In this document: positions 2,973 to 59,204 of the stretch, one piece after another
Numbering within the stretch: the first letter of the stretch is position 1
Layout: the number at the start of each line of letters is the position of its first letter
Origin: Pseudomonadota bacterium
GTDB taxonomy: Bacteria; Pseudomonadota; Gammaproteobacteria; Burkholderiales; JABEVD01
Direction of reading: 5' to 3'
Assembly: GCA_021802545.1 (NCBI GenBank)
Contig: JAJZRS010000006.1
Span: 9,308-73,307, forward strand
DNA: 64,000 nt
Position numbers and translations under genes: made by a program
Notes under the pieces: model-generated
The model's input: the letters and a program-made list of their open reading frames with translations, nothing else
Databases searched by the model: none
Told to the model about the DNA's origin: nothing

Positions 2973-3416
2973 TCAGTATTCCTTGTAGGGAAGGAACTTG
3001 CCGCTCATGACGATGTGCACGCGGTCTCCCTTCGGATCGGGTTCCCTGCTGATGTTCATCGAGAAATCGATGGCGCTCATGATGCCGTCGCCGAATTCCT
3101 CGTGTATCAGCTCCTTGATCGTGCTTCCGTACACGTTCACGAGTTCGTAGAGGCGGTAGATCAACGGATCGGTAGGCACAGCAGAGGGCAGAGATCCCTT
3201 GTAGGGGACTACCTGGAGCATCTCGACCGCCTCGTCGGGAAGCCCGAGCATCTCGCCCGCCTTTTCGGCCTGTTCTGAATTCAGGGTCATCTGCCCCAGC
3301 AAGGCGGCAGTCGTCCATTCCTTGCTTTTTCCGATGCCTTGCGCGAGCTCGGACCACTTGATTCGTTTCCTGTGCTTTGCGGCCAGGACGAGTTCCGTTG
3401 CTTCTTCACGAGTCAT
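2973..3416 (-). CDS. cynS: Cyanase (cyanate hydratase)
   Basis: There is full-length similarity to CynS (..KWSELAQGIGKSKEWTTAALLGQ..PYKGSLP..DPLIYRLYE..YG.TIKELIHEEFGDGIMSAIDF). The start was trimmed to MTREEATEL, giving 147 aa. Confidence 0.92.
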   Translation of the reverse strand: MTREEATELVLAAKHRKRIKWSELAQGIGKSKEWTTAALLGQMTLNSEQAEKAGEMLGLPDEAVEMLQVVPYKGSLPSAVPTDPLIYRLYELVNVYGSTIKELIHEEFGDGIMSAIDFSMNISREPDPKGDRVHIVMSGKFLPYKEY

Positions 3417-3468: not shown

Positions 3469-3715
3469 TCAGTTGTCCTTGCGGAACCTGTAGGCGATGG
3501 CCGAAATCACTGCGCCCTGAGGATCCTGGATCACGCAGAAACGGCCAACTTCCGGTATGTCGCGGGGAGGCACGATGATCTTTCCGCCGAGCTCCGCGCA
3601 TTTCGCTGCAATCGCATCCGCATCATCCGGTGTAGAACGCCTTGGCCGCTTCCACATCGGTCGTCATCAATTCGCACCAGCTGAAGAAACCTTGTTTCGT
3701 GAACCGTTCGTCCAT
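3469..3715 (-). pseudogene. VOC/glyoxalase-family gene with internal deletion and frameshift
   Basis: The ATG at 3715 has RBS AGGGAGA and gives [30 protein letters not shown] followed by a stop. The C-terminal VOC block [44 protein letters not shown] continues in another frame (track ORF 3469..3657). The middle of the domain is missing. Confidence 0.7.
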
Positions 3716-45409: not shown

Positions 45410-45877
45410 TCAAAACCACCTTCCCGTTTTCAACTTGTATTCGAGATAGGGCTTGCCGAATTTTACCTCGAGGTATTTCTCTTCCTTCAGAATCACCCCG
45501 TAGTGCATGAGAAAAATGAGGGGAAACAGGAATGAGAGCGGCCAGAAGCTGTTCAGAAGCAAGCCAGCCCCGACGTAGAGCATCGTCATGGCAAGATAGA
45601 TCGGGTTTCGGCTGATTCTGAAAGGGCCGCCTGTTGCAAGCGCCATCGAGCTTTTCCTCGGGTCTGCGCTCGTGCCCATCCTTTTCATCGTGACGAAGGA
45701 CCAGCGCGCGATAAAGGCGCCGGATGCGGCGAGAAGGAACCCGAGCACCTGGAGCATGTGCGGGGCATCCAGGAGCGGCCAGGGAAATAACAGGTTCAGG
45801 GCAGCGCCTGACGCGAGCGATCCGAGATAAAGCAGGGGAGGGGGGGCGATGACTCCCGCCGTGTCGGAATTTTCCAT
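45410..45877 (-). CDS. Isoprenylcysteine carboxyl methyltransferase (ICMT/PEMT) family membrane protein
   Basis: It has multiple TM helices and GPFRISRNPIYLAM......EE..L...FG..Y..Y. Confidence 0.75.
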   Translation of the reverse strand: MENSDTAGVIAPPPLLYLGSLASGAALNLLFPWPLLDAPHMLQVLGFLLAASGAFIARWSFVTMKRMGTSADPRKSSMALATGGPFRISRNPIYLAMTMLYVGAGLLLNSFWPLSFLFPLIFLMHYGVILKEEKYLEVKFGKPYLEYKLKTGRWF

Positions 45878-45883
45878 CGTTCC

Positions 45884-46198
45884 CTAGACCGGGACGACTG
45901 CAATGAGATCGTCGCCGTATTTCGCGATCAGATCGTCTTCGTCGGGCTCCCTGCCGAAGACCACGAGCTCGCAATGCGGGCCTTTCGTCACCACCCATGC
46001 GACATAGGCATATCCGTCCCTGTAGGCCTCCGACTTGATGTGTTCGATCGCATTCTTCATCGTCGAACAGGCTGGGCATGCGATTTCCTTGATGACATGC
46101 TCGCCGGTAGATTTCAGGCAGGGCGGGGTTTCGCCTTCTTCGAGCGCATGGGACTTCATGCAGGGCAGCTCAGACAATGCCCATTTCCGCTCATCCAT
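45884..46198 (-). CDS. Hypothetical Cys-rich protein (104 aa)
   Basis: This intact ORF lies 6 nt upstream of the ICMT-family gene on the same strand. It contains CxxC (CPAC) plus further Cys/His residues. I recognise no family. Confidence 0.4.
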   Translation of the reverse strand: MDERKWALSELPCMKSHALEEGETPPCLKSTGEHVIKEIACPACSTMKNAIEHIKSEAYRDGYAYVAWVVTKGPHCELVVFGREPDEDDLIAKYGDDLIAVVPV

Positions 46199-46251
46199 GT
46201 CCGCTCCGCAGTCGAAAACTCCAGTTTAGCGTATTTCTTCCTGATGCGCGC

Positions 46252-46280
46252 TTGACACTGGAAAGTCACTTGAACATAAT
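46252..46280 (+). promoter_or_regulatory. Near-consensus sigma70 promoter
   Basis: TTGACA (46252-46257), a 17-nt spacer and CATAAT (46275-46280) lie ~88 nt upstream of the small ORF at 46369. Confidence 0.5.
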
Positions 46281-46368
46281 AAACCGCACCACAGACATGG
46301 ATATATAACCATGCCATTGGTAATGTTAACGCGTAGAAATTCAATATACTTCATAAGGGAGGTTTGGA

Positions 46369-46467
46369 ATGGATATGTCGGCATACTGGCATTTTGGAAT
46401 CATCTGGGCAGTGGTTGCAGGGTTTTTCATTCTCAGCACCTGTTATCTCAAGAACAAGCAGGGCTGA
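46369..46467 (+). CDS. 32-aa hydrophobic peptide (type-I-toxin-like or small membrane protein)
   Basis: Hand translation gives MDMSAYWHFGIIWAVVAGFFILSTCYLKNKQG followed by a stop. AAGGGAGG lies 6 nt upstream of the ATG. It is bracketed by a promoter and a terminator and is below the ORF-track length cutoff. Confidence 0.55.
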   Translation: MDMSAYWHFGIIWAVVAGFFILSTCYLKNKQG

Positions 46468-46501
46468 CCTCCGGCGGGCCGACCGGCCTGCCGCATTGAA
46501 A

Positions 46502-46529
46502 AGGGCTGCGATGATTCGCAGCCCTTTTT
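46502..46529 (+). terminator. Rho-independent terminator
   Basis: The hairpin is GGGCTGCG-ATGATT-CGCAGCCC followed by TTTTT. Confidence 0.75.
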
Positions 46530-46688
46530 CATTTGGTGCGGATTTTGGGGCTTTCAGGTGCGCAATTTGCTTGCCTGCCGGGAATACCTTTAAGAAGGGC
46601 ATTCCTGTCGTGTTTCCTACATTCCGTTTCACCATTCCTGCGATTTCCGGGAGAACCTTTTTCCGCTGCGGCAAGGCATTGCGGGAGA

Positions 46689-47210
46689 ATGAACATGCAT
46701 GACGCATGGAAAAAAGAAGAATGGGTCATCTGGAACGGCTATTACGGCATCGTCACGGTGGGGACGCTGGGCAGGATAGAGGTGAATGAGGAGGGCAGAA
46801 GCGCATGGATGGATCTGCCCTACGACATGCTGGGGCCGTTCAAGCTGGACGAGCTCGAGTCGCACGGCAGGATCGAATTCGCCGCCTGCATCGTCATGTC
46901 GCGCAAAAGATGGCATGAAGACCAGGATGAGCTTCGCAGGGAATCCCTGGAAAAGCGCAGGGCTGCCCAGGCGCGCATGAACGATGAATTCTCGAACTTC
47001 TTCGGCGGGCATGGCGGCAAGCGCAAGTCATTCGACGAGAAGCAGCATCGGGAGGCACTGAATCTGCCGCTTGATGGGAAGCTCGATCCTTCCCAGATCA
47101 AGGCCGCTTTCAGGAGGCTCGCCCAGAAGGTCCATCCTGACATGGGAGGGACGGACGAAGCCTTCGTGCGCATCACGGAAGCGCGCAACGCGCTGCTCGA
47201 ATGGTCCTGA
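46689..47210 (+). CDS. J-domain (DnaJ-like) protein with C-terminal J domain
   Basis: The C-terminal LDPSQIKAAFRRLAQKVHPDMGG...F..I.EA...L carries the HPD motif. The start ATG 46689 follows GCGGGAG. The upstream part of the track ORF is rejected. Confidence 0.7.
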   Translation: MNMHDAWKKEEWVIWNGYYGIVTVGTLGRIEVNEEGRSAWMDLPYDMLGPFKLDELESHGRIEFAACIVMSRKRWHEDQDELRRESLEKRRAAQARMNDEFSNFFGGHGGKRKSFDEKQHREALNLPLDGKLDPSQIKAAFRRLAQKVHPDMGGTDEAFVRITEARNALLEWS

Positions 47211-47212
47211 AA

Positions 47213-47247
47213 ACCGGCAGCTCATAAGCCGATTCTGCCGGTTTTTT
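47213..47247 (+). terminator. Rho-independent terminator
   Basis: The hairpin ACCGGCAG..(14 nt)..CTGCCGGT followed by TTTTTT lies immediately after the J-domain gene stop. Confidence 0.7.
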
Positions 47248-47275
47248 CATGGTGCTGAACAGCCCTTTCCAGCAA

Positions 47276-47326
47276 GCGATAAAGCAGGCGATAAAGATTG
47301 AATTATCAACTCCGTTTCGGCATACT
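47276..47326 (+). promoter_or_regulatory. Tandem 9-nt direct repeats abutting a candidate promoter
   Basis: GCGATAAAG occurs at 47276-47284 and 47288-47296. TTGAAT (47298-47303), a 17-nt spacer and CATACT (47321-47326) follow. A CA-rich leader and the RBS AAGGGG lie downstream, before GTG 47375. Confidence 0.35.
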
Positions 47327-58616: not shown

Positions 58617-58716
58617 ACCAATGAAAACATCTGTTTTCTGATCTCAACTGTCAATTGCAATGTAGTTGGGGATCCTCTAACTGCTTTTCACGAGTTGCGG
58701 ATCGGGGTGAAACGAA

Positions 58717-58751
58717 AAAGGCGTGCAAATCATGCAAGCCTTTGTTTTATT
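58717..58751 (+). terminator. Rho-independent terminator (one mismatch in stem)
   Basis: The hairpin AAAGGCGTGCA-AATCA-TGCAAGCCTTT is followed by GTTTTATT. Confidence 0.55.
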
Positions 58752-58798: not shown

Positions 58799-58837
58799 AT
58801 GCAAGCCTTTGTTTTATTCGGCTCACCAACTTGAATG
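58799..58837 (-). repeat. Degenerate duplicate of terminator tail + tRNA fragment (67-bp offset from fragment C)
   Basis: ATGCAAGCCTTTGTTTTATT (58799-58818) is identical to 58732-58751. The following 19 nt match fragment C at 12 positions. Confidence 0.65.
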
Positions 58838-58892: not shown

Positions 58893-59204
58893 TTATTTGT
58901 CAGCAGCATACGTTGAATTTATTTTGGCATTAAATTCTTCTAGTGCCATTGATATAGGTTTTTCATTCTCAGCCAAACCCTTCAACGTGTTTTGACAAAA
59001 TTCGATTAGCGTAGATGTCGGGACAGTTACCTGAAAATTGATTTTACGTAGTTCCTTGCCAGACTTTTCATCTAGCCCAACGGTTGTTTGGATCTGTATC
59101 TTTGATACAGGAATACCAATCATAGCTGATAGCCCATCAGCATAAACTTGAGCAGCAGATGCCATAGACTCAGGTATTACAGAAACGATAGGGGGAGTGC
59201 TCAT
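58893..59204 (-). CDS. Hypothetical protein (103 aa), third gene of the AT-rich operon
   Basis: This intact ORF has a start that overlaps the upstream stop by 4 nt (ATGA). I recognise no family. The composition is strongly AT-rich compared with the rest of the window. Confidence 0.55.
   Translation of the reverse strand: MSTPPIVSVIPESMASAAQVYADGLSAMIGIPVSKIQIQTTVGLDEKSGKELRKINFQVTVPTSTLIEFCQNTLKGLAENEKPISMALEEFNAKINSTYAADK

Follow-up and report, generated by a model that had tools for sequence, protein, structure and literature searches.

Organization of the locus

The window, by which we mean the whole 64-kb stretch of DNA analysed here, contains a gap of 496 nt between a gene for a 104-aa protein (start 46198, minus strand) and one for a J-domain protein (start 46695); a gene-poor gap of about 490 nt had been described in the original prediction. 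The 104-aa gene is divergent from the unit considered here and heads an operon with a PEMT-like methyltransferase. The following features were recognized within the gap:

46252–46280, plus strand: sigma-70 promoter, TTGACA (46252–46257), 17-nt spacer, CATAAT (46275–46280), consensus score 11/12
46288–46321, plus strand: 5'-terminal mRNA stem-loop, ACCA..CAUGG-loop-CCAUG..UGGU, from the predicted fold
46330–46380, plus strand: nearly invariant leader segment with a three-tier hairpin (CGCGUA/UAUG.CG, AUUC/GAAU, ACUUC/GAGGU), from conservation and fold
46343–46370, minus strand: weak promoter-like site, ATTCCA-16-TATATT, 8/12, from a relaxed promoter scan, a candidate only
46355–46362, plus strand: Shine-Dalgarno sequence AAGGGAGG, followed by TTTGGA (6 nt) and the ATG at 46369
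46369–46467, plus strand: open reading frame of 32 codons and a stop, encoding MDMSAYWHFGIIWAVVAGFFILSTCYLKNKQG
46473–46492, plus strand: GC-rich hairpin GGCGGGCC-GACC-GGCCUGCC, with no U tract, immediately 3' of the stop codon, from sequence and fold
46499–46529, plus strand: intrinsic terminator with a 13-bp perfect stem, a 4-nt loop and T5, from an inverted-repeat search and fold

The near-consensus promoter, the very strong Shine-Dalgarno sequence with its 6-nt spacer and the hairpin with a T5 terminator are thus all present as predicted. Apart from this promoter, no sigma-70 match in the window, on either strand, reaches 11/12. From the position of the promoter, transcription presumably starts near 46287–46288, giving a 5' untranslated region of approximately 81–82 nt; the leader of some 88 nt proposed originally is correct when counted from the last base of the -10 box up to the ATG, but would be too long for the 5' untranslated region itself. 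With 47% G+C as a whole and 39% in its leader, the unit is richer in A+T than the DNA around it, the window having 57% G+C.

The arms of the terminator (46499–46511 and 46516–46528) are 13 nt each and 100% complementary, the T5 occupying 46525–46529. It is symmetric, with an A-run on its 5' side. A pattern scan for terminators did not return this hairpin among its matches, presumably because four of its T's are counted inside the stem. The other GC-rich hairpin, at 46473–46492, had not been separated from it in the original prediction. An 11-nt inverted repeat around the transcript (46281–46291 and 46534–46544) was discarded: it lies outside the terminator and is not conserved.

The 104-aa protein (45884–46198, minus strand) contains cysteine, has no Pfam domain and belongs to a tiny family, with 8 clusters in 5.8 billion proteins; a gene for a PEMT/ICMT-like membrane methyltransferase usually comes next after it. 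A candidate promoter for this divergent operon (TATCCA-16-TATTAT, 8/12, 46276–46304, minus strand) has a -10 box overlapping that of the mini-ORF and is conserved in two relatives, L085 and L086; were it real, the two divergent promoters would compete. On the other side of the unit, a sigma-54-type -24/-12 element (A-GGTGC-GCAAT-TTGC-T, 46556–46571) lies approximately 125–140 nt 5' of the J-domain gene. The motif TGGTGCGC(A/T)ATTTGC(A/T) recurs in 28 of 81 related loci, spread over many proteobacterial orders, at 100–215 nt 5' of the J gene. The J-domain protein, itself widely conserved, therefore looks sigma-54 dependent.

Relatives and distribution of the unit

Four variants besides that of the window were found, all in uncultured proteobacteria, with peptide identities of 78%, 75% and 55% and one partial sequence. 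Four of the five variants fall in one clade and the fifth, L087, is distant. Their peptides, detected by sequence similarity, lie at:

L085, 2678–2776
L086, 2584–2682
L087, 3040–3132
L095, partial

A HMMER search of 1.84 billion representative proteins returned only two credible homologues, P0121 (75% identical, 32 aa) and P0123 (55% identical), the latter called as 43 aa though its true start is probably at MAAYW, which would give 30 aa. A profile search of 5.8 billion proteins recovered the three known clusters again, the window's own included. L085 (78%, uncalled) and L095 (partial) came from look-ups guided by the neighbouring genes. The frame was originally thought to have escaped gene calling, which does not hold for public gene calls: 8 metagenomic contigs carry a called gene for exactly this peptide, all of them in a single context with identical neighbours.

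The peptide had no match in the named families of NCBIfam, in PADLOC or in PDB. Pfam models cover the Hok/Gef, Ldr, Fst, TisB and Ibs toxins. Searched against Pfam at E <= 1, the peptide gave a single chance match, to Adeno_E3_CR2 (0.32), and none to a toxin family. In PHROGs the window peptide was without a match and P0123 had one at chance level (E 0.28). The best Rfam matches were terminator look-alikes of at most 18.5 bits against thresholds of at least 37, and the leader had no Rfam match at all. Plasmids searched by tblastn and blastn yielded chance matches only. Scans of metagenome and viral contig collections with degenerate patterns, based on the peptide or on the promoter and leader, gave zero hits; these zeros are weak evidence because the metagenome collection evidently lacks even the JGI contigs which bear the unit. 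The peptide family is tiny and unnamed, while its kind, a small single-TM peptide and candidate type I toxin, is well known.

All variants retain the -35 and -10 boxes, the 5' stem-loop, the Shine-Dalgarno sequence, the frame and a terminator (from the alignment and L095). The -35 box is TTGACA in 5 of 5; as -10 box the four close variants have CATAAT and L087 has GATAAT. In L087 AGGAGG, 5 nt ahead of the ATG, is the counterpart of the Shine-Dalgarno sequence. The terminator at 46499–46529 is conserved in L085 and L086, which also retain the hairpin at 46473–46492 with one-sided changes; in the alignment the latter coincides with the only terminator hairpin that L087 has. When the window is compared with L087, similarity extends from the -35 box to the terminator and no further, and among the relatives in general homology ends at the terminator. 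At least three arrangements of neighbouring genes surround the unit:

Window and L085: 104-aa gene, unit, J-domain gene
L086: 104-aa gene, unit, Pvc16/sheath cluster
L087: 678-aa gene, unit, convergent HamA-like gene

None of the neighbouring genes recurs in all five contexts, and a partner may be encoded elsewhere. The window, L086 and L095 have the PEMT-like enzyme, whereas L085 and L087 lack it. By tblastn the unit is absent beside 104-aa homologues at 68–73% identity (L088–L094), and its site is filled by a co-directional gene of 122 aa in L096, a locus which has an 86% homologue and shares its sample of origin with L095. Among 80 GTDB genomes, the region 5' of the J gene likewise contained no homologue of the peptide; the 'LVTCYL' match found there in L004 and L005 is no homologue of the ORF. 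These differing contexts, together with its absence beside homologous neighbours, mark the unit as an accessory, patchy block which belongs to neither of the adjoining operons. The proposal of a self-contained promoter, leader, ORF and terminator is supported by the conservation of its parts, and not of the DNA outside, in the relatives. As far as sequence comparison goes, the unit is confirmed as a genuine, patchily distributed small membrane-peptide module.

Several observations concern the wider neighbourhood. In L085 the terminator palindrome of the unit recurs in the opposite orientation just 3' of the J gene (3526–3558, 97% identical), and a looser copy lies at 58710–58743 of the window (region 58706–58745). 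Both copies are followed by TGGCTCCCCGACC, a string resembling a tRNA 3' end or an att site, which is repeated in the variant form GGCTCACCAAC at approximately 58810–58830. The segment between 47.2 and 58.7 kb, encoding a TPR-secretin, an 899-aa jacalin-domain protein and a 969-aa protein, may be an insertion relative to L085. A 17-nt exact match on the same strand links 46421–46437 (codons 18–23 of the mini-ORF) with 58957–58973 (E = 0.005 within the window), inside a 103-aa minus-strand ORF (58893–59204) whose mRNA would be complementary to that of the mini-ORF; as the 17-mer is not fully retained in L085 or L086, the match is probably due to chance. At 3162–5265 of L087 a HamA_HO-like gene lies tail-to-tail with the unit, sharing its symmetric terminator; the next gene encodes at least 432 aa and could form a Hachiman-type defence pair with the HamA_HO-like gene.

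The open reading frame and its product

The product has a single predicted TM helix, an acidic N-terminus and a basic C-terminal tail (YLKNKQG). Its best 15-residue stretch has 11 residues from the set I/V/L/F/C/M/A, the threshold for type I toxin candidates being 10 (PMC2887945). Between the window and L087 there are 31 differences in 90 nucleotides (34%) with zero indels and equal length from YW to the stop, unlike both untranslated regions, which carry indels.

dN/dS was 0.15–0.27 against L087 (NG86) and 0.4–0.86 among the close variants, where very few sites are available. When the same number of substitutions was placed at random, the probability of an open frame with at least 16 of 30 identical residues was 0.0026, and only 0.05% of trials also retained the hydrophobicity of the core (p = 0.0005 for all three jointly). 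Changes within the close clade are concentrated in codons 12–20, and every one exchanges one hydrophobic residue for another. Judged from these comparisons, the frame is under protein-level selection, and the 32-codon ORF with one TM helix and a basic tail has held up to both conservation and coding-selection tests.

Residues D2, M3, Y6, W7, F9, G10, I11, W13, A17, I21, L22, C25, N29, K30 and G32 are invariant in the four full-length peptides, and the variable residues of the TM segment share one side of the helical wheel (p = 0.0085). A TM helix which packs through one specific face, its outer end acidic and its inner tail basic, would fit this pattern.

Overlapping frames of 62 and 112 aa were rejected as artefacts. 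So was the public call of a 105-aa gene in L085 (2459–2776), which overlaps the 104-aa gene on the opposite strand; it is an upstream extension of the mini-ORF frame, opened by a TAA-to-CAA change in the leader.

The leader RNA

The 5' stem-loop begins 1–2 nt past the presumed transcription start and is present in 5 of 5 variants. In-register pairing was found in 80% of cells, against 17–45% with the partner slid (five sequences). Covariation was not significant with this number of sequences, the observed score being reached in 95 of 500 shuffles.

Further downstream, the predicted hairpin at 46330–46380 pairs ACUUC with the GAGGU of the Shine-Dalgarno sequence and also takes up parts of both AUGs. 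Its energy is modest (-10.9 kcal/mol), 6 of 200 shuffles folding equally well, and the mean unpaired probability of the ribosome binding site in the window clade is 0.38–0.42. Conservation of this segment among the window, L085 and L086 is extreme: the 39 nt preceding the ATG contain one variable column, and the 72 nt from 46330 to codon 11 contain three against approximately 41% expected (P ~6e-13 under a rough neutral model); pS of the neighbouring genes in the three close genomes is 0.27–0.37. The leader is constrained as RNA. Substitutions in L085 and L095 are confined to the apical loop of the hairpin; loop positions are invariant too, which structure alone leaves unexplained. In L087 the leader has deletions and no comparable fold was found, so that gating by the hairpin would be specific to the clade of the window and not a trait of the family. 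Pairing of the Shine-Dalgarno sequence with a CCUCC 3' of the stop, as in the minimum free energy fold of the window, was rejected, since neither L085 nor L086 conserves the CCUCC.

Search for an antitoxin RNA

What defines a type I system, besides the toxin, is an antisense or otherwise base-pairing RNA antitoxin encoded in cis or next to it. No minus-strand promoter of 9/12 or better occurs in 45500–47300. The weak site at 46343–46370 would give a transcript of approximately 60 nt antisense to the 5' leader; sites of 8/12 are, however, at noise level, several being expected per locus by chance. L087 has such a site near its start codon, at a position not equivalent to that in the window. A second copy of the unit was not found in the window by tblastn or blastn, and complementarity to the unit elsewhere in the window was nowhere significant. 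The flanking spaces of 54 nt and approximately 25 nt leave no room for a separate sRNA gene.

Comparison with known systems

Criteria for candidate type I toxin proteins (PMC2887945) and the general architecture of such systems (PMC8594479, PMC8309996) have been described. Like the type I toxins Ldr/Fst, TisB and ZorO, the peptide is shorter than 60 aa and has one TM helix with a polar or basic C-terminus. The unit also resembles them in being monocistronic and separate from its neighbours, with its own promoter and terminator, in its long structured 5' untranslated region, in which the ribosome binding site may be partly sequestered, and in its narrow, patchy distribution. It differs from them in several respects: no antitoxin RNA was found, the window contains no tandem or multiple copies, and at E <= 1 the search returned none of the Pfam toxin families. 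Tandem or multiple copies are frequent, though not obligatory, in type I systems.

YohP of Escherichia coli is a stand-alone membrane peptide of 27 aa which depolarises the membrane and for which the abstract names no antitoxin (PMC12719787). The peptide described here is likewise stand-alone, single-TM and of approximately 30 aa, and an effect at the level of the membrane is plausible for it; sequence similarity to YohP was not detected.

Small membrane regulators have been reviewed (PMC12648545), and the structure of one of them, AcrZ, with AcrB is available (PMC7267776). The peptide resembles AcrZ, MgtS and KdpF in size, in its single TM helix and in a helix face suited to helix-helix packing. 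At 32 aa it is within the limit of about 50 aa for small regulatory membrane proteins, with one TM helix and a frame under protein selection. Unlike these regulators it has no conserved partner gene or operon, lies in a variable context and is covered by no Pfam or NCBIfam model.

AzuCR/AzuC and SgrS/SgrT are dual-function sRNAs which encode small proteins. The present transcript, of approximately 240 nt with a small ORF and non-coding sequence under strong nucleotide constraint, is comparable; in contrast to them its constrained leader is clade-specific, and the peptide is conserved more widely.

Possible function

Our preferred reading, to which we assign a probability of roughly 0.45, is that of a dose-dependent membrane-active peptide, resembling type I toxins or YohP, encoded by a gated 'orphan' toxin-like module. 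We lean this way because the architecture is type I-like, because the unit is distributed patchily, as a module, and because it lies where accessory or defence gene clusters meet other genes. The promoter would give a monocistronic mRNA of approximately 243 nt, its 5' end capped by the stem-loop as a stabiliser. In the clade of the window the Shine-Dalgarno sequence and both AUGs may be kept in the conserved hairpin, so that even abundant mRNA would yield little peptide unless the hairpin opens, perhaps in response to temperature, a protein or a yet-unseen RNA. The peptide would then be inserted in the inner membrane as a single helix, its acidic N-terminus facing outwards and its KNKQG tail inwards, and might act through its conserved face (Y6, G10, W13, A17, I21, C25), either associating with itself or binding a different membrane protein.

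That face would suit a benign, partner-binding regulator equally well. Such a regulator or accessory subunit of the AcrZ, MgtS, KdpF or CydX type would tune a larger membrane protein and be non-toxic at physiological levels, the leader providing condition-specific translational control. The single TM helix with a conserved small/aromatic face and a variable lipid-facing side is what one would expect of it, as is a single-copy unit with no antisense partner found, and most of the many small membrane proteins in this size range are regulators (PMC12648545). Against it, none of the five contexts has a constant neighbouring membrane protein, the module-like distribution and the near-consensus, constitutive-type promoter are less typical, and no named family matches. 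We hold this explanation to be a serious contender, about equally likely as that of a type I toxin, itself plausible. The original prediction had named both a type I toxin and a regulatory membrane peptide as options; the small TM peptide common to both stands, an antitoxin RNA was not found, and the evidence separates neither from the other.

The remaining explanations are less probable. A classical type I toxin-antitoxin locus would have a cis-antisense RNA initiated at 46343–46370 on the minus strand, running across the complement of the leader and ending at the complement of the 5' stem-loop and a U-rich stretch over the -10 box. The candidate promoter does lie within the invariant leader, such an RNA might account for the loop invariance which structure does not explain, and the L087 site is near a start codon as well; yet an 8/12 score is that of noise, the positions differ between the two clades, the stem of the putative terminator is AT-rich with its U tract 4 nt off, and there is no tandem duplication, all of which makes the arrangement doubtful. 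We consider it improbable that the transcript is a regulatory or dual-function RNA, like AzuCR or SgrS, which base-pairs through the invariant leader with the ORF secondary or incidental to it. The leader and both ends of the ORF are more conserved than neighbouring synonymous sites, and pS in the ORF (0.15–0.19) is below that of the flanking genes, but the strong, optimally spaced Shine-Dalgarno sequence is retained in both clades, frame, length and hydrophobicity survive 34% divergence to a degree rarely matched by the random-mutation trials, and the invariant leader is neither conserved in L087 nor matched in Rfam. Finally, the ORF and terminator precede the J gene in the same orientation in the window and in L085, and might be taken for a leader peptide and attenuator. 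This we reject, since the downstream gene is unrelated in L086 and convergent in L087, and the J gene has its own sigma-54-type element 3' of the terminator, conserved in relatives which lack the unit; moreover, no alternative antiterminator fold is apparent.

At present the value of the finding lies in a well-supported small gene annotation, with no new kind of biology. It is rather unlikely, though conceivable, that the peptide is the founding member of a new family of type I or antitoxin-less 'orphan' toxins in uncultured proteobacteria. If it were, a 250-bp promoter-to-terminator module would be moving, or persisting alone, at the junctions of variable islands, such as the J-domain/secretin/jacalin cluster, the contractile-injection cluster and the Hachiman-like defence genes, where it would stabilise the islands or act in the response to stress or phage; gating would be by the invariant hairpin over the ribosome binding site and possibly by a short cis-antisense RNA from 46343–46370. 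Outside model organisms, the annotation of small membrane peptides and of type I toxins is very incomplete. If validated, the unit would offer a tractable example of how such peptides stay silent and of whether adjacent accessory islands gain stability from them.
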